DNA of 20,000 nt, taken from NCBI GenBank assembly GCA_905331295.1, contig CAJNYD010000589.1, positions 46,312 through 66,311 of the forward strand, written 5' to 3'. Numbering within the stretch: position 1 is the stretch's first letter; every line of letters begins with the position of its first letter. Below the pieces are notes generated by a model. It did no database searches, had not been told where the DNA came from, and saw nothing but the letters and a program-made list of their open reading frames with translations. Of this stretch, positions 1,786 to 20,000 are shown piece by piece. The DNA is from Rotaria socialis. Lineage: Eukaryota. Both the position numbers and the translations under genes were made by a program.

Positions 1786-3884
1786 CATTAGATTATTATT
1801 GATCTTCATATCTGCATATTTCTAGAAATCAACTGAAATATGTCTTGATAATAAATATTCGCCATTAACAAGCTATATGTTCTACGTATTCAATCGAATC
1901 TGTTAAAACAATGGACTCTATATTAAAAAAACATTTCATTAAGAAAATGAACTAATTTTCTTTACAAGAACTCTCTCTTCAGAGAAACAATTCCATCTTT
2001 ACTATTTTCACCAATTTTTTAGAACTGAAAAGCCTTTTATTATCAAAAACTTATGTCCTGCACAAATTGCAGTAATTATTCAAACTTTAGATGTTTTCTA
2101 TTCTAAAAGATTAACATCCTCTATAAATCGCAGTAAACTTATAAAATTAACTTCAAATTTCAATCGTTTTGAAACAAATTCGAAATAATAAACTTTAAAA
2201 TAAAACGAAACTTTTAAGTTTGAATTTAGTTAAATTCATTCTCTTTATGTTCGCCAATGAGAAGTAGCCCTTTATTATAACAATGCCTACCCGATCAGCC
2301 ACTAAATTGTGTTTTCTAATAAATATTGGTAGCATACCAAGTAAGCGTACACGTACGACATGTAAATATTCTATGCATAAGTACAGGTGAAATGCAGTAG
2401 CGCCCAAATCATAGAGAAGAGCACTTTTTCTTATGCCTACTCATTTTTCTATCTTTTTTCGAGCCAAAGTTACGCACCAGCGGCTCTCTCTTCAAGCGTT
2501 TAAGTATAAGCGAGAATATGAGTATATGGCTTTGTAGTGCGTAGTAGTCAAGCTTTTAACATATCATTTTTTCTTTAAGCCTCTTTATGAATTGACTTAA
2601 TTCAACCGCAATTCAGATGGTTATTTAATCGTTGAAAGTTTGTATGGCTATACAGTTTTGATTTAATTCTTCAACATTTTTCACATCTATTAGAGTTAGG
2701 GGTGTCACATTTAAATTTAGCTAAATTTAAATTAAATTGTCTCAAATTCAAATTAGTTCAATTTTGAAAACTAGTAGATAACGATAGCTTTTGACTCGAT
2801 TGCTATTATTTAAATTCAAATTTGAGTATGTTTTTTGTTTTCGAAAGTTAAAGGTAGCCATTATTCTACGAATTGTGCTATTAAATATATTTTTATGAGT
2901 ATTACGGTATTTTGAAGAAGAGAGATGGCTGTAAATTGACACCACTAATACAAAGTGAATTATATAGAGGGATCCACATTAGGTATCAGGTGAAATTGAC
3001 AGATAGGCACTTGTGGACGTCGAAAGAAATTTGACAAATGTTTACTCCATTATACATTTTCATTCAACGAGGTTCAAACCTGTTACAGACGGAACCAATT
3101 TGAAAGAATTTTCCATGTCCTTTCGTAATACCTACCACAATTTCGACACGCATTCACCTGACTTCTAGGTGATGCACACAGCAAAAAAATTCTTCAGGGT
3201 ATCACTCAAGTTCTAAAACTTGGACAACGTCCATATTTTTCTCGAAGCAGTTCGAGAGAAAACCACAGTGAGAATCGCTCAGGCATTTGTAACAAAACAA
3301 CAGTCCATTATATATTTCATTTCACCTGCATCTCAAGTGAATCTGTTACAGAAGAAGTATTAAACTGATTTCCTAACTCTTGAAGAAGCCGTTCGTTTGT
3401 ATTTCTCGCCAGATGCATGATGTTTGACATTTATTCATCGAAGAGTAACGATGAAATTGGCATAAATAAATACTCCTCTTTTTATTACATAGCATGGTCC
3501 CTACGTACAGTGGCCGTCGCTGTTAGATATATTTATGAAACAAAGTAAAAAATATAAATCTCTAATCATCTCTATTCTATCGGTTATAATATCTCATCGA
3601 TATTAATAGGTTTCAGTAATTTTATTTCACGAAATAATATGAACTGCCTAACTTTTAATATATCAAAATTATTCACCCACTTCCAAAAACTTCCTATCTT
3701 TCCGTAATCTAAACAAAAGTCTTAAGTAGTTTAGTAGCGTGCTGGGTGTCATTTCATTTTAATATACTCATTTAATCTACTTGTAACAGCACCAAGTAAT
3801 ACGGGTGAAACAGTTCTCAGATCTAAGGGAATGCCTGAAGAGTTCTTTTGATAGGAACTAAACCTGAACTATCATACCCCTACC

Positions 3885-4540
3885 AATCAACTTTGCGAAC
3901 ACAGACAACTCAATCTTATTGCATTCCTCGATGATTCACAACACCAATTCTTCTCTATTGTTTGGATGACATTTTTTCATTCGATCTTGCAATGCACCCC
4001 AAAGATTTTCAATGAGATTGAAGTCCGGAAAAGAAGATGGCCATTTCAAGACTGGAATTCCATTTTTCTTCAACAAATCCTTGACGAGAGATGACGTGTG
4101 GTTGGGAGCATCATCGTTCATGAATATGAAGTTGCTGCCGACTCCCAGCTTGCTCATTGAGGGTACCAGATTCTCTTCTAATATTTGTCGGTAATAAAAA
4201 TGATCCAAGGTAAGATCTAAAACACAGTTTGCCATGATTGCTTTCGTAAAACAACCCCACAGTATCATAGAACCACCCCCATGCTTCACTGTTGGAAATC
4301 GTTCACTTTGGATCGAACTCTTCCTTCAACGTTCTACACACCATCACTTTACCATTTAAACCGAATAAGTTAAATTTCGATTCATCCGCCCAAATTACAG
4401 TATCCTAAAAACCTAACGATTTTGCCAACGTTTCTCTTGCATATTTGATGCGTTTCATGCTCTTAATATTATTAACATGGGGTTTGTTACGAGCAACTCA
4501 ATTGAATAGCTCTATTTCAGGTAATCGACACCGAACAAAA
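3885..4540 (-). pseudogene. Tc1-family (DD34E) transposase pseudogene, truncated
   Basis: Manual translation gives VARNKPHV..KRIKYARE..TVIWADESKFNLFG..(frameshift)PTVKHGGGSMILWGCF..FMNDDAPNH..WPSSFPDFNLIENLW, with 34 residues between the second D and the E. Several in-frame stops and a frameshift near 4295. No TIR pair found. Confidence 0.93.
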
Positions 4541-5908: not shown

Positions 5909-6667
5909 ATGACACACAATACTGCTGCTGGTCCAATTCCGAAATCACTACCGTGTACAGAAGAAATACTATCATATGAATTCCAATACGAAGATGATGT
6001 GTCGGAAGCAGTTGAATGCCCACCTGAAATTCATTTCACAATACCTGAAGGTTTTGAAATAAGGAGAGCTCGTTACGGCATCGGTATTTATACGACCAAG
6101 TTTATCCCTAAAAATGATTATATGTTCACGGCATATTATATTCCTATACATGACAAACAGCTAAAAGTCAAAGAAATCACAGATCGCGGAGACATAATAG
6201 AAATTGATACATCCACACACTTTTTGAATGCTGGTAATGGCACTTATCTACTAGATCCATGTGCAGCGCTAATAAATCACAGTTGTGATGCGAATGCTAA
6301 CAATATAGATGAAATAATTGGTATGAAAGTGACTCGTCGAAGCTCTTATTATGCGGTGCGTGACATACAACCGAATGAAGAGATAACAATAAACTATTTG
6401 TTAGCAGTATATGAAGCTCCACGTAATTATGAGAACGAAGAGATCCACTTTAAACTTTAAGTTCTTCTATTTTTTTCTCTAGCCAACTTGCATCCTATTG
6501 ACCCATGTGAATGTGGCAGCCCAAAATGCTTTGGGAGTATGCGAGGCTTTAAAAATTTGCCAGAAAGCGCAAAACAAGCATTATTACCTTACACTTTGCT
6601 ACATGTTCGTGTCGCCCACTTTATGGACAAACAGAAAAAAGTAGATAAGAAACTTGACCAAAACTAG
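5909..6667 (+). CDS. Stand-alone SET + post-SET domain lysine methyltransferase, 232 aa; exons 5909-6422 and 6483-6667
   Basis: SET motifs YGIGIYT, LINHSCDAN and AVRDIQPNEEITINY. A 60-nt intron at 6423-6482 (GTAATT...TTTTTTCTCTAG, phase 1) splices in frame to PNLHPIDPCECGSPKCFGSMRGFKNLP...DQN*, which supplies the post-SET CxCx4C zinc cluster. Confidence 0.92.
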
Positions 6668-7253: not shown

Positions 7254-8400
7254 ATGGGACGTAAAACTATTGATATTGGTATAAAAAGAGGTATTATTCA
7301 GCTACGTGACAGTGGTATGTCTTAACATGTCTCGAAGATTGAATATTGCAACGATTAATTAACTTGATTCCAATTTCACAATTACGTCAATTTTCTTTTT
7401 ACGATTCAATTCTACGCTTGTTTGATTTTAATTTTCCGTTTATATCAATTCATCTTTTCGACTAATTCTGCTTACTTTAATTTGCATTCTCTTTCGAACT
7501 AGAGAACAGTCAGCAGCGAAAGGAAGATAACGTTTCAAGGGGGAAAAGGGCGACTTCCGTACTTCGAAGTACGTGAAGTACGGAAGTCGCGCCTTTTCCC
7601 TTTGTAAGGTTTACATATAAAAAATTAAAAACATGGAAGAAAGAGAAAAGATTAAGTCATATATCGTAATGATGAGGCTATACAATATCGATTCAAAGGA
7701 TGCCCGTCTTCTATTATGGACCCGCTCATTTATGACTGGACGTTCTCTACTACTTCCATTTCTCAAACGATCTTTCCCTGTATTGATGATGTCTTTTTTT
7801 GGCAGAAAAATTTCTCGACATAATGTTCACCAAACTATTCAAAATTTTAATGAATTTCACACGGTTGCTACAAAATCTAGAGCCAAACGTCATTCAAAGC
7901 TAACAGATCGTTAAAAACGAGCAATTAAATTACAACAAGTTCGTGATGATACTCTTTGTTTGAATGATCTTGTCCGGCATGTTCAAACAAGTTTCAATCT
8001 TACTGTCAGTCGTCGAACAGTGAGCCATATCCTTCATGAATTTTACTAGATTTCTGATATTGTACTAAGAAAGGCTCGAATAAATTATAAATAAATATAT
8101 GCTCGTCTTCATTGGTGCGATGAACATTTAACGTGGGGTGAAAAATATTGGTCAAATTTCATGTTTATAGATGAAAGTAATTATGTAATATTAAGTTGAA
8201 AGAATTGGATCTATATAACTCGATTTCGAAATGATTTAAAGCGATTTGAACGATCTGACCAGCGGGTAAATAGAGGTGTTGGTGTTGGTATTTGGTCTTC
8301 TCTAATATGTCAAGGCCTTGGACCACCTGTTTTGTTAAGATGGTTCCTTAAATTAAGATAAATATATGGGTCTATTCTAGAAGCATTTAGCAACAGCGTT
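7254..8400 (+). pseudogene. Second Tc1-like transposase pseudogene, split by a ~460-bp insertion (~7347-7809)
   Basis: N-terminus MGRKTIDIGIKRGIIQLRDSGMS*H..SRRLNI (7254-7349) resumes at ~7810 as ISRHNVHQTIQNF..KLTDR*KRAI..VSRRTVSHIL..LRKARI..RLHWCDEHLTWGEKYWSNFMFIDES..VGIWS..GLGP. This covers the HTH region and first catalytic D. Multiple stops; C-terminus not recognisable. Confidence 0.88.
7536..7604. mobile_element. 69-bp palindromic mini-transposon (TIR-only MITE) with 8-bp TSD
   Basis: CAAGGGGGAAAAGGGCGACTTCCGTACTTC-gaagtacgt-GAAGTACGGAAGTCGCGCCTTTTCCCTTTG, flanked by TAACGTTT (7528-7535) and TAAGGTTT (7605-7612), 7/8 identical. Confidence 0.8.
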
Positions 8401-10344: not shown

Positions 10345-13300
10345 TTAGTCGCAGTAGATGTAAACAGCCATATCTGGCTTCATAGTTTCGCCAAGTTGAA
10401 AATGACGCCCAGTATTTTTTTCTGGGCCACCATCGACAAATGTAAAATGTTGCATTAAGCGAGTTATCATTGTTTTTAACAGTAGCCGGGCTAAATCTTG
10501 ACCCATACACTGACGGGGCCCTCCTCCAAAAGTATTTAATGCATAGCGGTGATGATCTTTATCTTTTGCATCCAAACCAAAAAATCTTTCTGGAATGAAT
10601 TGGATTGGATCTAACTTCCAATAGCGTTTATCTTTGTGCATATTATAGTAAGCCACCAAAACAGTATCGCCCTTAGCTAATTTTATTCCATCGATCTCAT
10701 CATTTTGTTTAAGAGTTTTCATAGTTGAACTGAAAATAGGTGCATGTCGTAACAATTCTTTTACAACACAGTCCACATATTGAAGTTTCTCCAATAATTC
10801 ATTGGTCAAATATGTCTCTTTTGTTATACCATTGGCCATCAATTCTTGTTTAATTTTTTCTTGCACTACAGGATATTTACTCATGTAGTAAATCCACCAA
10901 GATATCGCTGTGGCTGGTGGATCCGTACCGGCTTCAATTATTGATAAAATCTCTTGAAATAGTTCTTCACGCGATAAGCCTAAAAAGAAAGCTACACATA
11001 TTTAACTTTTCATATTCTTATTCCGCATTGTGTACATCAGTATTTGTCCGCGTCTTTGCTTGATTTTTATTTAAACTTTCAAATATATCAGTGTTTTCTA
11101 ACGAAAATCTAATAACTATTGATGTTGTTTCTTTGTAATTATTAACATTAGGATTTCTACTAACTATCAAATATTTCTGCTCAGATGAAAGTAGGAATTC
11201 AGAATGAATTCATTATTTTTATTTTGGCATCATAAACTGAGTAAGTGAGCAATTTGGTTCATAATTTTCGAAGCCAGACATTGATTGGTTAATGTTCGAT
11301 TTAATTCAAAAACACACTAACCGATCACAATACAACTGCTGACTAATGCTTTAGAAAATGAAAGATCACTAATGCCTTGTAAATTCATGAAAAATTTCAT
11401 TTCGCAGGGATGTAGTTGAACTCGAATCGTACCAGCCAGTAGTACATTCATAAGGGGTGAATTTAACTTGGGAAACAATAAAGCAGTTTAAACAATCTCA
11501 ACCTGACGACTAGGTACGATTGTTATTATTCTTTTATCCTATTCCTCTGTACATGAATGAGTAAAACTCTCTCAACATTAAATTTGATCGTACAGATTTT
11601 GTTATTTTCCTGAAAATTCTATCTCCTAACTGCTAGGCAATAACTACATGGTTGAGCATATATTCGGAGTTCATTAAGCAGTACCTTAAACAAAAGAGAA
11701 GCTATTTAGTCTATCTTGAATGTGACACTCATTCCGATTACTTGAAATATATTTAACGGGGAACATTACCTTTTGTTTCAAACTGATTTAATAATATCAG
11801 TACACTTGTAATCAAATATACTATTATAGAAAGCTTGAACTGATCATGTTTTTGTTGTATAATAAGCATCAAAACGATTGTTAAACAAATGTTTAGCAAT
11901 TGTCGGATAAATATTCGATAAACCTGATCTGCTTTTATTTAAATAAATAACTATTACTTCTTCGTCATCATTAGTCAAATTTCATTTAGAATTAATCGTC
12001 TATGGTGCCTTCTGTACTTCTTGGCGAAGTATGCCGCGCAAAATAACGAGATGAAAAAATTGGAAGAAGTTGACCACTATTCTATCTTACTTTTCCAATC
12101 ATCTAACAAGAAAATCGTGTTTCATGGCTACTGTCAGATGATTATAACGCTTAACAGTTTAAATAATTTTTTTTGCTTTCTTCAAATTTCAAGATTCACA
12201 ATTTCATTCCGATTGTTCTTTGAAAAAGTAGCTATATTAAATAATCAAATATTCAGGATTATTTCGATTCTAACGAATAAATCATAATCGTTAAGCTTCT
12301 CATTCGAATGTTAATATGTCAATCGACTATATCATCCAAAAAACTTACAAAGGAATCAATAAAGTTGACGAAACGCATTCAATAGTAGGATCGAAACGCA
12401 TCACTGTTATATACTCGTTTTTACATAACATTGGATTAGATGAGGGCGTGTGTATCGGTGTGTATAGCGTCCTAATCCAGGTGCAGATCTACACCCACAC
12501 CCTTAAAGTCTAAAAAAAGACCCTTATTTTCGCTTTACTTTAACTTTTGAAGTTAAAGTGCCACCCCTAGTTCGGTACCCATCAATTCTATCTTAATTCA
12601 GTCAGGAACCACAGGTGCAGCCGTGCCGACTTCCATGTTCTTGAAAATGCAATATTAGAAAGTCTAAATGAGGTTCGCGATTTTTTACTTCGATTCAATG
12701 TCTGTTTAGTACATACTGATAAGTTATAATTCACTGATTAAGTGGCACTTTCTTTTTCATAAAATACTGCTTAATGGATTACAGAGTACCTTAGTGAAGC
12801 ATCTTGCTAGCTATTGACCAACAGATTGGCTACATATTTATAAGACCTTAGGCACGTATTCCTAAGCTCTTGAATTGTAATATGATAAAATGGGTTGTGT
12901 TCATCATGATTTGTGACAGAGCAGCATAATACATTATCAACGCACGATTTGATCCTATAACATAGTACGCTCATTCATTTTTACTTTATTGTGATTTTAA
13001 AGATTCTAACTCAGCATAACTGCAGTAAATCAGACCTTGGAATTTGCCTGAATTGGAGATTATGTGATCTTTATCAGACTGCTTCAGGGCTATTCACCCA
13101 CGATCACTTATTGACATTAATATAATCATAATCATGAGCGGAAGTAGCCGAGAAATAGTATGAAAAGAAATTATTCTCACAATCTATCTTTTGTAATGTG
13201 TTGAACTGAATTGTTTATGTGTAGCTTCATTTGAACAAATAGTCGTTAAATAACTAACTAATATGTGAACACATTAGTATTATCACCTTTTTATTTCATT

Positions 13301-16300
13301 GAAGATCTTTTGAGAAGATAATAATAAACCAAATCTTTTCTATGTTCATGGCAAAATCTTATTAGATACATATACATCTAAAGTAACCAAGCTGTCGAGG
13401 TAAAATCATCTTTTCACGATCTTGATAAGATTTTACTCGCAAGATATTTTACTGGGGTATCAAATTCTACGATGTGTAAATACTACATATTAAAAAGAAC
13501 AGAATATTCTATTTAAAAGTTTAGCATAGCGGCATTAGCTACAGTTTGTGATTCTATTTGTCATCTCGGAGATCTGAATGGTGTTTCAAATATGTTCTCC
13601 TTTCTGAAAATTATGGAAAGACTATTTTACATCAATATATTCATTCAATCCAATCCATTCGGTCCTGAATTACTTAGATGTTGAAACAACAAGGGGGGAA
13701 AGCGGATCCCGGGATCCATCGAAATTCACTGATCTCATTAGCATAATTTATTCTTTTATGCGTTTACAAGAACAAAAGAAATTAACTTGACGTGTATTAT
13801 AAGAAATTTAACATCAATATATACGCAGAACAACTGTACCGATATTACTAAATGTGCCATAACTGCAACTTATCTATGGGATATTTTTTAATATTTAATT
13901 ACTAAGTGAAGATTTTACCACTTCTCAGCACACTGGAAGCTAACCATTAAGGCATTCAATTGTGCATACTGTATTATGACTATCCATATGCATCAGTTCA
14001 AAATAAAGTTTCTGTCCTGAACTATTTCTGTGATGATGTCTGTTGGCATATTGAATAGTTTGTCATGTTGAAATGAAGGTCTCTGATTTAAACATTAATT
14101 ATTCACTTATGTTCATCAGGAAAAATCAGTAGTGTCATATATCCAAAATTTTGGAGAAGTGCTCACATTTTTGCCGGAAGATGCAGCACAAAGTGTGAGA
14201 GTTGTACATCTCTCAATGACCTGACACATCTCCAACAGCAAATCCCCGCATCTCCTGTGAAAGAAGTGAGCACTACTCGGAAAAATAATACTATTGTCGA
14301 GATAAAATAAATTCTTTGCAATGGTTACTGAATATAGGAAAAATTTGGCACTTTTCAAAGTTTATTGATGTTTTTTATTCATTGCAAGTTCAATAGCAGC
14401 ATTTGAACAACACCTAAGAATTTTTGAACAAAAATTGATTGTTATTCAGCTGAGTAGAAAAAGATTTCTGATAGGAATTTATTTTAATCAGCAGTCGGTA
14501 TATAACTTGTACTGAATGGTAAAAATATAGGTTTTTTTGACGAAAATTGTATGATTATTGAAGAAAATGATGATTTCTATCAGAATTAAGAATCTCATGA
14601 CGAAGCTAATTTATCGGATTCTATTATCTCATCTTAAAATCGGTTAGTCTCTATCGAAATTCAACTAAAATCTAGTGATCTCGGAATGTGATATGAAACC
14701 TAGTTAAATAAGATCAGCTTATGACCAAATTTTATCGAGTCTCATCGGATTCCAGGAACATCTGATGAAATCTGAATTGGATTGGGTTGTACGTGGCTGA
14801 ATTTTTGAGCTAGGATGATAAATTACAAAAATATATAATTGCCTTTAATATTATTCAGCTAGTCTCAGTTCAAACTTCTGTCTGTTTTAACATATCTCAA
14901 TATGAATTGTGATAGATTGATGTGAGATGTTATAAAATTACTCAATGTATATGTCTTTCTTTGTTAGAATAGAATTTGAATTTTACATATTAATCCCTTC
15001 CCCATATTAATAAGGCTTCACGAGAAAATGTTCGTCAGAAACAATAGAAGATTGTATTAGTGATTTGTCATTAAAATATGCCTTTTTCTCCTGTTTTTGA
15101 GCTTGAAATATTAAACGTGCCTTCAGAATTATCATTACACTCTTAAAATTCTTAAAATTGTTTTGGTTCTTGGCAAAACTTTTGAATAAAATATTGGAAA
15201 AACAATTTGAAACTCAATAGGAAAATCCACTGAAAAAGTTTTACAATGGAGCGTAATAGAAGAGCCAGAGTCTTTCGTTACGGAGAAAGGGAAATTGCGC
15301 ATCGTTCTCATTACCCCACTATGTTTTATCTATTTGCTATACAACAATAAAATTTTGCGGCATCTAGTATGATCCGCTGGAGCTGATGGGATCTACTGCG
15401 ATATGCTGGGATCTGGGTTCCTGTTTATCCCCCTTGTAAAACAATAAGCATTTTTATGAGATAAATGTCGTTTCTACGCATTCATGTGATGATTCATCTA
15501 GCATCTAATAAGAAAAAAATATGACTAAGGACGACTGCATCATTCAACAACTATCATCCTTGTTCTCGATCACTCACCTTGTTTTTCTTCTTCTCGCTTC
15601 TTCATTTCTTTTGCCTCATCCGTTTGCAATGATGCTACCACCGATGCGATCAAATTTGTTCTTTCATGTTTTTCGATTTGACGCAACCTATCCAATTCTC
15701 GATTTATAATATCGTTTATAAATTCTCTCCATATATTTTGCGCTTTTTGATATTTTCTATTGAATCTTAAATACATACGAAGTAAGCAACTTGGCAAAAA
15801 AATTGATAAGCTTAATGCAGAATAATTTATGTCAGATACAGTTTGCAGCGCTGAACTCAAAACTTGTTGCCGATTTATATATACTTCATGCAAATCTTTG
15901 TCTGATAGAAGTAAAGCCATCAGAATATCAAACGACAAACTTTGTGTTTCTTCGACAATTTTGCTATTTAAATAATGAGGACCATTGTATGTTTTCCAAT
16001 TGCTAATAAATTTATCCATGCTATCAACAATTTTATTCAAATGCTTTGTGACTTTATTTTTTCTTAACAGAGGCATAAATGCACGAGCGTGTCTTTTATA
16101 TTTTGCAGATTTAATTGCAAAGAATCCATGTTCATAAATCAAACTGAAACTATTTTGGACAATATCACCTAGATCATAAATTTGCCGGTTACTAAATATT
16201 TGCTGTGCGTGTTCGGCTTTATTAAATACATAAAAATGATAAGTGCCTAACCAAAACTGAAATATATCTCCATAATCTTTTTGTAATTTAGAATACACGT

Positions 16301-16466
16301 TAACTAACGATTCACCATCAAGAACACCTGTTTGTAACACATTACCCAACAGAAACTGTGGTTTCAGACCTGGTGCAATGCCACGTAAGGTGAAGTATTT
16401 TATCTTCAGATAAAAATAGAGTACGATAATAAATGATAAAATTACGACGATTGTTGTTAGTAACAT
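10345..16466 (-). CDS. Cytochrome P450, 507 aa; exon 1 16466-15578, exon 2 10979-10345, single 4598-nt phase-1 intron
   Basis: N-terminal TM anchor and PG..P..LGN hinge. Donor G|GTGAGT at 15577 and acceptor TTTTTAG|G at 10980 join in frame (EEKQ-G-LSREELFQEILSIIEAGTDPPATAISWW). K-helix ExxR (KELLR), PERF (FIPERF) and heme motif FGGGPRQCMG are present. No stops in the spliced product. Confidence 0.95.
13690..15436. mobile_element. Non-autonomous/decayed TIR DNA transposon (hAT- or P-like) inside the P450 intron
   Basis: Left end CAAGGGGGGAAAGCGGATCCCGGGATCC; reverse complement of the right end is CAAGGGGGATAAACAGGAACCCAGATCCC. Flanks TGAAACAA (13682-13689) and TAAAACAA (15437-15444) match 7/8. 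Subterminal GGATC/GATCC motifs occur at both ends. No transposase recognised inside. Confidence 0.72.
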
Positions 16467-17046
16467 TTTTTAATTCATCACAATGAGCCCCCAGAGAATC
16501 AACTTTTGTGAGTAGTTTTGTTTTGATCTACTCCTTTTTATATTAAAGGTCTGTACAGTCAGAAACGAGCAACAAAATTACTTTTTTTTCATCGTCACAT
16601 ACCGATGGTTTTCTTTTCTGCTCCTGTAATCTAACTATAGCGTGCGCTTGTGGAGTGTTTTACTGTGACAAAATGAGCTACTGAATCAGGCTTTTTTTCT
16701 ACTTACGTGACCGACATCAAGGATATTGATAACAGTGATGGGACCAGTACGGTTAAAAATTTCTAAAAAAAATTATCTTTCAATTCGGCTCGTTTTCAAT
16801 AATATTTGGTTCGGTTCGACGACCTTCAAATTAAAGTATATATTTTTTTAAATGAAAGAAACGAAAAAGAAAATATACGTTTATACAGGGTTTGCATTAA
16901 AAAGGTGACTCTGTGTGGATACTAACCATGAGAAATCACTCCATCTACCTAAAAACAGATATCATTAATAGCAATAGCGCATGTATGTATATATCTCTAT
17001 TTAGAACGCTTCTGATTAGTAACTTCTATATTTGAATAACGGACGC

Positions 17047-17066
17047 GGGTGTGGGGTGTGGGTGTG
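17047..17066 (+). repeat. Short interstitial telomere-like tract (TGTGGG)n, i.e. (CACACC)n on the element strand
   Basis: GGGTGTGGGGTGTGGGTGTG, separated by 7 nt from the 3' end (minus strand) of the hammerhead at 17074. TGTGGG is the described bdelloid (Adineta) telomeric unit. Confidence 0.7.
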
Positions 17067-17073
17067 AACAGCA

Positions 17074-17117
17074 GTCAAGACTAGTTTCATCCTTGCTGAA
17101 GGGAATCATCAGTTGAC
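17074..17117 (-). ncRNA. Minimal type I hammerhead ribozyme (copy 1, 3'-terminal)
   Basis: GTCAA CTGATGA T TCC CTTCAGCAA GGA T GAA ACTAGT C^TTGAC. Stem I GTCAA/TTGAC, core CUGAUGA and GAAA, palindromic helix III ACUAGU. Predicted GUC cleavage after 17079. Confidence 0.88.
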
Positions 17118-17259
17118 AAATAATCTAAATGATAAAATTAAATTTAAATAAATAAATTTAAAAAATCACAAGATAAAAATATATCTGACATAAATATAGA
17201 ATTAAATTAACTCATATATAAATGTTGATAATTTCAAATAACTGTAGTGTGAATTAGCT

Positions 17260-17304
17260 GCCATGATCTAGATTTCATCCCGGCTAAAGGAATCATCAGA
17301 TGGC
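17260..17304 (-). ncRNA. Minimal type I hammerhead ribozyme (copy 2)
   Basis: GCCAT CTGATGA T TCC TTTAGCCG GGA T GAA ATCTAGAT C^ATGGC. Stem I GCCAT/ATGGC covaries with copy 1, the core is the same, and helix III is the palindrome AUCUAGAU. Predicted AUC cleavage after 17265. Confidence 0.88.
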
Positions 17305-17844
17305 TTAAAATATCTTGAATTATTCTTAATCGAAAATTCAAAACAAATTCTAATATCTTCAAGAATTTACAAAATTATATAAAAATAATAATGTAATAGA
17401 AGATTTCCTTTCACAAATCATTATTCGGTTGGTGATCGTTGTTGAATGAATGATATTACTGTTGTTTGATTTTGTTTTGCTGAATTAATTTTTTTGTTGG
17501 TTTTTCGTTGGTTGGGTTATGTTGTTGTTCCGGTGGATATAAGCAGTGGGATTGTTTGATTTCATATGAAGTAGGTTGAAAGACTACTGTTGTTTCGCTA
17601 TTTGCTGTTGGTGTTTTTTTTATATCATTATTGAGTCTTGAAAAATATGTAATGGTCGTATTTATAGTATCTGAAACAGAAACGAAATGAATTTTGAAGT
17701 AGTGATTTATATTCGGTTGTTTGTTTTAGATCTTGTTTTAAATATTTTTTTTTCGAATGCTATTGAACTGAAATGTATTGCAGACAAAGATGCGTGAATA
17801 CAAATACAATTTGTACTCTGAAAAATTATATACCTATACAAATC

Positions 17845-17961
17845 AGAATAGGTGGCTATGTACTATCATGTAAAGTCATGTAAAGTCATGCACTCTGAGA
17901 ATATATCCAAAAAACTTAGAATAGGTGGTTATGTACTATCGTATATAATCATGTACTCTGA
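17845..17961. repeat. Degenerate direct repeat, ~73-bp period
   Basis: AGAATAGGTGGYTATGTACTATC at 17845-17867 and 17918-17940, each followed by ..TCATGYACTCTGA. The first copy has an internal TCATGTAAAG duplication. Confidence 0.75.
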
Positions 17962-18478
17962 TTAACTGTTTGAATTAAGACAGGCAAGGTAGATATGTAT
18001 GAGAACTACAAATATTTAAGATTTTCTTATCTCTAAAATAGCCGTGAATGGTGGGAATGTGTTTACACAAATGAATTATGAATGTGTTGACGTTCGGTTT
18101 AAAGTATTGGAAATGTCATGCTATATAGCAATAAAGAATCGAGTTGTATATGAAATATTAGCAAGTTATATATTGTCATTCTTATGAAAATCCACTGTTT
18201 TCTTTGTTGTATAGGTTGTTCTCCTATTTTGTAGTTAACAATATGTTATATTTTCGATTAGAAAAAGACGCAAAACATGTAGAGGTATGTATGAAAAAAA
18301 ATCAGAGAAAAAAATAATGAGTTGTATGAAAGAAACTACGCGCAAGTTCTATGTATTGTGATATCATTGACAAATCAAGGTTTTTGATGATCTAAATATG
18401 AACAAGTTATGAATATGGATTAAATATCGTGCTATTCATGGCTGTAGTTTAAGAAGAAAGCTTACCAAGTAACGTTTT

Positions 18479-20000
18479 TTAAAATGGATTGCCGACGTTA
18501 TTGTCTGTATCCATAACGGAACAGCTAATCATACATGTCGACGAAGAGGAGCCTAAATAAAACACATATAACCAATTGTGAGTTGGTGACTTTGTTATCG
18601 TTTCTTTCTTTTTTTTAGAGAAAAGTTTTCAGAAGTGTTCGCAAAACTAACCTTTAACGTATTTTCGACTATATTCGAATTGATTGTCACAAGTATTACG
18701 TTCACAATTCATCAGATGGAATAATACCAAATAAGCAATACGAGCTTTCTTTGATGAGTACGATGATAGAGCATTGTGATATTGTTTCAAGACACTGTTT
18801 CTTTGTTCCGCAACTTCAGTATTAATACTTTTAGCTGCTTCATCTGTGTGAATGTAGTCTAAGTTTCTTTCTTTTTGGCACATAGGCCGTTTGTGATTCG
18901 GTTGATGGAATCGATCGATGAAGAAGGAACATTCAGAAATAAATTTTGATGATAATGTTTGTGGAATATGTCGATTACGATCGCTTTTGCCATATCGATT
19001 CCAAAAGTAGATATTTAAGCTGCAAGCGTTATCATAAATAATCATTTTTGGTAAGTATTGATGATATTGACTATTGATAACATGTATACTTTTGAATAAA
19101 TGTCGTAAAGCGATAAAGCAAGATTCTGATCGAAAAATTTCATAAAAGCCGACAACTATTCCACACGGAGATAATGTGTAAATAATACCTTGTGATGATC
19201 GCTTTTCTAGGCCCACGAAACTAGAAAATAAACTATCTATGCTAATATCGATATACTACCAACATACCGATCTCCTCTAGAAACATTGCATCCCATCAAT
19301 GGATCATCATAAATCCCTTTGTCATCATCAGTTAATAAAGATGTTTCACTATCTTTTAATAAAATGGATTCACGGCATGGTTCACATAAGCCGGACTTTG
19401 CTTTCGGTGTGTTACCACAGCCGATGTAAATTCCATCAGGAAATTCTTCGGTACATTCCTGTTTATTCTTATTGGTACAAATTGGTCTCGCAACTTTTGC
19501 ATGCCATCCAAGACAAAACATCTCATACAGCCAGGATCTATATTCTTTCTTGTTGCTGCACATGGATGTGTTCGATGATGAGTTGCCCAATGATTAACAA
19601 AATCATTGTACCATTGATCGTAGTTAATATAGAAAAAGTCATAGATAGAATTATTATCTAATAAACCTGGTATTTCAAATTCACGAAGATCATTCATAAA
19701 AAATGTATATAACGATAACTGATATATAAACCAAATGTTGGAAAAATATTCTCGACTAATTTCAGATGTTATCTCATGTGCCTGAAATAAAAATGCCAAA
19801 ATAGGTTTCAAAAACAACTTCTCCAGTGGAAAAACAGCAAATCAAAAGAAATGAGTACTTCTGCGTACAAAAGAAATATATATATAGAAAAAGCTTATCG
19901 ATTTCTCCAATACTAAATATCTATACTTACGGCACTTTTATTTGAATTCAGATTGTGATATTTTTTAAGAGATAGATTATACGAATTTTCGAAGTTTTCA
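18479..20000 (-). CDS. KDZ (Kyakuja-Dileera-Zisupton)-type transposase with upstream Cys cluster (CxC6-like); spliced, 5'-partial, one apparent 1-nt frameshift near 19495 (possible pseudogene)
   Basis: Motifs CFVLDGMQK..RPIC..GCGNTP....LC, PCGIVVGFYEIFRSES, IIYDNACSL, FIDRFHQPNH....C and INTEVAEQRNS. Predicted in-frame GT-AG introns: 19930-19782 (phase 0), 19267-19221 (47 nt, GTATGT..TTTTCTAG, giving GDR-FVGLEKR) and 18651-18553 (phase 1, adding GSSSSTC..GNPF*). Family assigned by motif recognition, not an HMM search. Confidence 0.82.

Follow-up and report, generated by a model that had tools for sequence, protein, structure and literature searches.

The minus strand of the window (by which we mean the whole stretch of 20,000 nucleotides that was analysed) carries two type I hammerhead motifs followed by a short telomeric tract, and this arrangement is very probably the 3′ end of a 5′-truncated Athena/Terminon element, in which the ribozymes would cleave only as dimers of like units and the tract would serve in priming. 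As an annotation the find is ordinary, one more Athena/Terminon tail. The role of the hammerheads in these elements is still called unknown in reviews (PMC7761336, in the part available), and the two neighbouring copies differ from each other in a way that makes this natural mixed pair a built-in negative control for dimer specificity. A predicted pseudoknot and a predicted rule of pairing like with like would together add a small structural twist to the known tail.

The hammerhead pair and the telomeric tract

Both motifs lie on the minus strand, where the initial annotation had placed them. HHR1 (17260..17304) has a 5-bp stem I (GCCAU/AUGGC), the core CUGAUGA, a U10.1 and a U11.1 that flank UCC/GGA, then GAA and an 8-nt palindromic helix III (AUCUAGAU); its C17 is at 17265 and the predicted cut falls between 17265 and 17264. 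HHR2 (17074..17117) has the same core and the same U10.1-U11.1, with a 5-bp stem I of GUCAA/UUGAC and a 6-nt palindromic helix III (ACUAGU); its C17 is at 17079 and the predicted cut falls between 17079 and 17078, leaving an inter-cut piece of 186 nt (17264-17079). The conserved CUGANGA, GAAA and NUH of the hammerhead core are present in both copies, as had been read from the sequence earlier (there as CUGAUGA), and the open-ended stem I, the hairpin stem II and the compensatory changes identify the type as I.

A relaxed descriptor run over both strands of the 20 kb matched HHR1 and HHR2 only, while among 500 Markov-simulated windows three contained one match and none contained two. The search with hammerhead models that had been proposed thus succeeded in part: the descriptor recovered both motifs, but a scan of the window with the Rfam models gave no hammerhead match at E ≤ 1. 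Neither motif folded better than its shuffles (z +0.38 and -0.49), and no third hammerhead was found in the window, the model R1 returning its two training copies and four matches at E 2.5-4.9. Given the Rfam result and folding scores close to those of shuffles, the case for the hammerheads is one of core conservation and covariation, not of stability. The two type I motifs are real by these measures, and self-cleavage is predicted from their sequence.

Seven nucleotides past stem I of HHR2 begins a reverse-complement telomeric tract (17066-17047 read along the minus strand; 17047..17066) of three ACACCC units and one extra C, which likely marks the element's 3′ end and the point of its attachment. 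The window has the tandem hexamer a single time and none of 200 shuffles has it; fold prediction leaves the tract unpaired. The repeat family to which the hammerheads belong ends here: in sequencing run X1 the summed depth fell from 428 (17052-17062) to 11 (17041-17051), and in run X5 from 1358 to 28, a collapse at about 17052. TGTGGG is the bdelloid telomeric repeat (PMC7943196, as far as the available text goes). The 3′ end of Athena/Terminon elements is described as a hammerhead followed by (ACACCC)n or (TCACCC)n, and their copies as mostly 5′-truncated (PMC6431247, available part); the excerpts at hand of 10.1101/2021.04.23.441226 and PMC5537684 support the same 3′ layout. A bdelloid rotifer as host is indicated by the SET (5909-6460) and KDZ (18647-19216) proteins, each of which is 99% identical to proteins labelled Rotaria socialis.

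The window therefore shares with the published 3′ module (PMC6431247, same portion) the bdelloid host and a type I hammerhead directly followed by (ACACCC)n, and also the multi-copy family and a truncated copy among host genes. The initial annotation had assigned the pair to the Penelope-like type with palindromic helix III, which proved correct, and had missed the tract that marks it as an Athena/Terminon end. The window differs from that module in having no reverse transcriptase or accessory ORF and in that its adjacent units are of different sequence type. Over the 2.7 kb available upstream on the same strand there was no Athena reverse transcriptase or other Terminon ORF, and no ORF of at least 80 aa separates the hammerheads from a CxC5/KDZ transposase gene at 18647. 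The element is thus probably a truncated copy and, because the CxC5/KDZ gene stands upstream in place of a Terminon ORF, its identity is read from the terminal module by itself. An A/C-rich stretch upstream of the motifs (17305..17700, minus strand) is likely its 3′ untranslated region, with an uncertain upper boundary; 17400-17700, A/C-rich on the element strand, has the strongest strand skew in the window. The gene model P0002 ends in a peptide from the same stretch (about 17460-17670, minus strand), probably a mis-joined last exon.

Copies elsewhere and covariation

Contigs of five public sequencing runs, out of 24, were compared with the window, with summed depth that is not to be read as copy number. 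In run X1 the flanks had a depth of 9-18, compared with about 3060 at HHR2 and 600 at HHR1. The AT-rich spacer of the HHR2 repeat unit (17118..17253, minus strand) has HHR2-type ribozymes on both sides in other genomic copies, with loose ends at 17062 and 17253 in three contigs each (run X1), and a joint from 17405 to 17244 in runs X1 and X9 puts the HHR1 unit (17244-17405) in tandem with itself. Both unit types are therefore multi-copy and each occurs in same-type tandem arrays elsewhere in the organism. Contigs of run X9, guessed to be RNA, span parts of both units, with no strand, ends or level readable from them. Among the runs compared no contig across both units was listed, so that the one-plus-one layout of the window may be real or may be a collapsed assembly. 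An origin of the two units by recent duplication was considered and rejected, as 17118-17253 aligned with 17305-17446 at 92 matches versus 92.5 in shuffled sequence. In other copies the spacer 17118..17253 is joined to a unit of a third type, whose palindrome has 10 nt (loose ends at 17252, run X1). In the same run an 810-nt contig over 16273-17082 has a depth of 8.75 versus 17.9 in its neighbour, a weak hint of a stretch present in one haplotype.

A metagenome scan returned at least 119 loci; of the matches listed, the filter retained only L024, L057 and L107. L104 is related but degenerate, and the other 115 loci were left out of the covariation set. L107 holds three hammerhead units of 172-173 nt followed by four TCACCC-type repeats, its middle hammerhead being identical to HHR1 at 44 of 45 positions, and L057 holds one hammerhead followed by two TCACCC-type repeats. 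In the window as in L107, a telomere-complementary seed follows the hammerhead in each unit and the telomeric repeats come only after the last unit. A prokaryote scan gave 42 loci, of which none passed the filter for palindromic type I motifs, and these were taken as chance. L002 and about 53 matches like it make up a large repeat family that is dispersed in two metagenome assemblies and has a candidate hammerhead core with U10.1-U11.1.

Covariation was scored on seven related copies, i.e., the two of the window, the three of L107, and those of L024 and L057. Both sides had changed in three of the five stem I pairs, which confirms the stem I covariation first seen between the window copies, and in one of three stem II pairs (4/10 tested pairs overall). 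The score was reached in 0 of 500 shuffles, for copies that are related rather than independent and a structure derived from the same sequences; across these homologues the core and the stem covariation are both kept. Helix III is self-complementary in 7/7 aligned copies with four different sequences, a count biased by the filter, which required it. Among the 15 variant rows listed for four runs the core is untouched except at N7, and the others affect stem II pairs, loop II or the flanks.

The U10.1-U11.1 of both copies had been called unusual, which overstated the matter. The listed run variants include paired variants at 10.1/11.1 and 10.2/11.2, and in run X10 U10.1 to G and U11.1 to C dominate the depth (6087/7962 and 5265/7480). 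The sister units of L107 have G-C (unit 1), U-U and G-U at this pair, and U10.1-U11.1 also occurs in type III hammerheads (five loci, by eye) and in a phage type I locus (L313). It is a minority variant, with 10 viral stretches matching the U-U pattern and at least 135 the G-C pattern; Perreault 2011 (PMC3088659, available excerpt) describes it as able to open stem II in natural hammerheads and as cleaving more than any other mismatch. The first U could be taken for an extra base after A9, but on inspection this was rejected, since stem II is then left unpaired.

The hammerhead variants of PLEs described by Cervera and de la Peña 2014 (PMC4209133, in the portion available) are reported for rotifer Athena elements too, and share with the window copies the type I layout, the short helix I, the palindromic helix III suited to dimers and the covarying variable families. 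The consensus of these minimal hammerheads has an extra nucleotide after A9 and a G10.1-C11.1 pair, whereas both window copies have the palindromic helix III with neither of the other two, and add a short 3-bp stem II and a predicted pseudoknot; an extra base between 9 and 10.1 is present in L107 unit 3.

Loop II, the 3′ tail and the choice of partner

On the minus strand, the 3′ tail of HHR1 (GCUAA, 17254..17258) complements its loop II (UUAGC, 17287-17283), and that of HHR2 (UGCUG, 17069..17073), which joins stem I to the telomeric tract, complements its loop II (CAGCA, 17098-17094), a predicted pseudoknot in each case. Each window copy would form five Watson-Crick pairs with its own tail and three when loops and tails are swapped; the probability is about 0.01 each relative to random 7-mers of the window, for a pairing that was spotted after the fact in these copies. 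Pairing of the kind described by Perreault 2011 comes, by computation, to at least four pairs in 5/7 related copies (outside the window, L107 unit 1 has four, unit 3 five and L057 four), and the pairing fails in two of the seven (L107 unit 2 with 3 bp, L024 with 2 bp). In an automatic alignment three of the five pseudoknot pairs change on both sides and 49% of cells pair, a low figure that is due in part to the L107 tails lying one column off. For HHR2, folding also places the loop II/tail pairing within a competing non-ribozyme hairpin.

An unselected test was provided by viral loci, where 149 core matches were reduced to 82 distinct type I hammerheads by setting aside 67 duplicates and matches that are not type I. 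Among the distinct phage hammerheads 33/82 have at least four pairs with their own 3′ tail, where 1000 permutations gave 10 on average and 19 at most, and only 3/82 have at least four pairs to the 5′ flank. The phage and bacterial pseudoknotted type I hammerheads (Perreault 2011, PMC3088659, as excerpted) share with the rotifer copies a stem I of 4-6 bp, a stem II of four positions and a loop II of 7-10 nt that complements the tail directly 3′ of stem I, as well as the occasional U10.1-U11.1 (L313), and some phage copies (L162, L217, L285) have a loop and tail near-identical to the rotifer ones. They differ in helix III, which is a stable hairpin in the phage copies and only a palindrome in those of the rotifer, and in that the phage copies lie next to phage genes. 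In L162 the phage type I hammerheads (815-868 and 2996-3043) lie on either side of a vWA gene, itself downstream of an AAA ATPase, and one of them nearly matches HHR1 in loop II and tail; the tail motif of L162-L164 was partly selected by the search pattern. That L162-L164 are misfiled rotifer contigs was rejected, as they are gene-dense, phage-like AAA/vWA regions with an RVT_1 match in 0/3 records.

Pseudoknots in hammerheads are published, and the type II ribozyme tested gained orders of magnitude in rate from its pseudoknot (PMC3088659, excerpt). The motifs of PLEs and Terminons are called minimal, lacking loop-loop contacts (PMC7761336, available part); the initial annotation likewise called the window copies minimal and overlooked the five complementary pairs between loop II and tail in each copy. 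This complementarity suggests that the motifs may not be minimal, and the pseudoknot is predicted to be able to supply the contact between stem I and stem II needed for fast cleavage. The predicted pseudoknot is a difference from the Terminon motifs of the reviews, where the parts available do not have it; loop II/tail pairing in rotifers was not found in titles and abstract openings, and it may be in Arkhipova 2017, Lunse 2016 or supplements. If the tail is needed for activity, constructs ending at stem I would underestimate cleavage; the weak activity given in PMC4209133 (partial text) belongs to motifs from other species.

In a double hammerhead the 3′ strand of stem I of each core comes from the partner (PMC4209133, available text). 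The initial annotation, which had predicted poor pairing between the two neighbours from their palindromes, was right in this and had not seen that stem I, too, is shared between the partners of a dimer, a further handicap for the mixed pair. The native mixed pair would have U-U and A-A at the cut-site pair, an added C-A mismatch and a bulged helix III. With the structures fixed, the monomers scored -2.1 and +3.5 kcal/mol and the homodimers -21.2 and -9.8, and the mixed dimer stood at +2.9; when stem II was taken as 3 bp long, the homodimers came to -18.6 and -9.8 and the mixed dimer to +4.2. The 141 nt between the motifs make an extended helix possible, between the 3′ side of HHR1 and the 5′ side of HHR2. 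The constrained mixed fold was at -23.5, versus -26.4 for both monomers together and -47.2 for the minimum, and hammerhead folds lay 9 to 24 kcal/mol above the minimum-energy fold in a 281-nt region. The native mixed pair is thus predicted by modelling to be largely silent in cis. The three units of L107 cross-pair well (-16.8 to -18.4), which means that mismatch between units is not a rule of the family. The poor pairing of the mixed dimer makes the covariation within units fit a selection on like-with-like dimers, which the same-type arrays would allow. Minimal PLE hammerheads of other species cleave poorly in vitro even as dimers (PMC4209133, part available), and weak in vitro cleavage of related motifs appears also in the accessible parts of PMC6765202 and PMC6466107.

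Mechanism and alternative readings

The telomeric tract, judging from the literature on these elements, would anneal to a G-rich chromosome-end overhang and thereby prime reverse transcription. The orientation fits, with the G-rich strand on the plus strand and the element extending toward higher coordinates. Attachment at a chromosome end or a break would be carried out by an Athena reverse transcriptase from elsewhere and be followed by internalisation. Cleavage by either ribozyme is predicted to require a like unit as dimer partner. The pairing in stem I, in helix III and in the pseudoknot would then run between the two partners, giving three sequence keys that favour like with like. Cutting at 17079 would detach the tail from the template, with only stem I and the pseudoknot left to hold it, and this severing of the tail favours dimer-gated over constant cutting. 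A more elaborate scheme, which we consider unlikely, has the Terminon hammerheads as phage-style pseudoknotted type I ribozymes whose helix III has shrunk to a palindrome, so that they would be fast, sequence-keyed switches working only with an identical twin; same-type arrays would then give unit circles that the Athena reverse transcriptase rolls onto telomere overhangs, and a mismatched pair would keep template and tail uncut.

Circles are also the centre of another reading, in which the units are a telomere-targeted, retrozyme-like mini-element whose arrays are cut to circles of 176-186 nt and rebuilt by rolling-circle reverse transcription from the telomeric overhang. The telomere-complementary seed in each unit, with telomeric repeats only after the last (window and L107), and the existence of same-type tandem units speak for it, and a unit size within the 170-400 nt of metazoan retrozyme circles (PMC7229834) and the circular intermediates proposed for PLEs (PMC4209133), both as given in partial texts, are in line with it. 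The metazoan non-LTR retrozymes likewise have type I hammerheads and tandem units of about 170-400 nt (PMC7229834, part available), to which the 186-nt spacing in the window, the 172-173 nt of L107 and the same-type arrays correspond. Theirs, however, are canonical loop 1-loop 2 hammerheads and highly self-paired circles (same excerpt), whereas the window unit is rich in AT, appears weakly paired and is linked with a telomeric tract: its 186-nt piece has 22% GC and is 63% paired, weakly more than 200 shuffles (z -1.9). A circle from the window locus would moreover have an A-A mismatch at the ligation-site pair, and unequal crossing-over or re-priming would account for the arrays equally well, so that this reading appears quite improbable. 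The 186-nt RNA that the initial annotation had expected from double cleavage and circularisation is matched by the spacing of the cuts; its circle found no support, and it is doubtful here, as both cuts are needed, the mixed dimer is predicted to be unstable and the same-type arrays lie elsewhere.

Cleavage might also be beside the point, the motifs being structural and rarely or never cut, with a fold that presents the telomere-pairing tail, since the cut at 17079 severs that tail from the template. The unstable monomer folds, the unfavourable mixed dimer, a tract predicted to be unpaired and a U-U that weakens stem II would all suit such a role, and the available part of a review (PMC6431247) stresses exposure of the repeat by the fold, with cleavage as auxiliary. 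The listed variants of four runs (15 rows), however, spare the catalytic core except the freely variable N7, and a palindromic helix III persists throughout the families, something that a fold presented by a monomer would not need; we regard a purely structural role as highly improbable. That the pair is instead part of a non-telomeric Penelope element with an endonuclease, or of the KDZ transposon nearby, and that the telomere-like tract is no more than an insertion target, is barely credible. Hammerheads are reported in all canonical PLE repeats (PMC4209133; 10.1101/2021.04.23.441226; both in part), and the KDZ gene is co-oriented and 1.3 kb upstream, but the module of a hammerhead and reversed telomere repeats is described as unique to telomere-associated PLEs (PMC6431247, partial text) and recurs in L107 and L057. 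The KDZ contigs of organisms B and C, moreover, match 17917-20000 and stop short of the hammerhead region, so that the KDZ gene looks separate from the hammerheads.

The CxC5/KDZ transposase gene itself (18647-20000, minus strand) is about 95% identical at the DNA level to the sequences in organisms B and C, from which it differs by several 1-nt indels. Short direct repeats at 17828-17973 (region about 17780-17970) are multi-copy and may be an end of the KDZ element. On the other side of the tract, two halves of a cytochrome P450, N-terminal (15570-16466) and C-terminal (10345-10884), lie about 4.7 kb apart on the minus strand and are likely one gene, whose start is 0.6 kb from the telomeric tract. 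A 36-nt inverted repeat at 14149-14283 has high depth in organism B and is possibly the end of a small mobile element, and a remnant of a DDE_3 (Tc1-type) transposase was found at 3936-4289 (minus strand). At 7529-7611 a 37-bp hairpin, 84% complementary, resembles a microRNA precursor, with an Rfam match at chance level (E 0.87).
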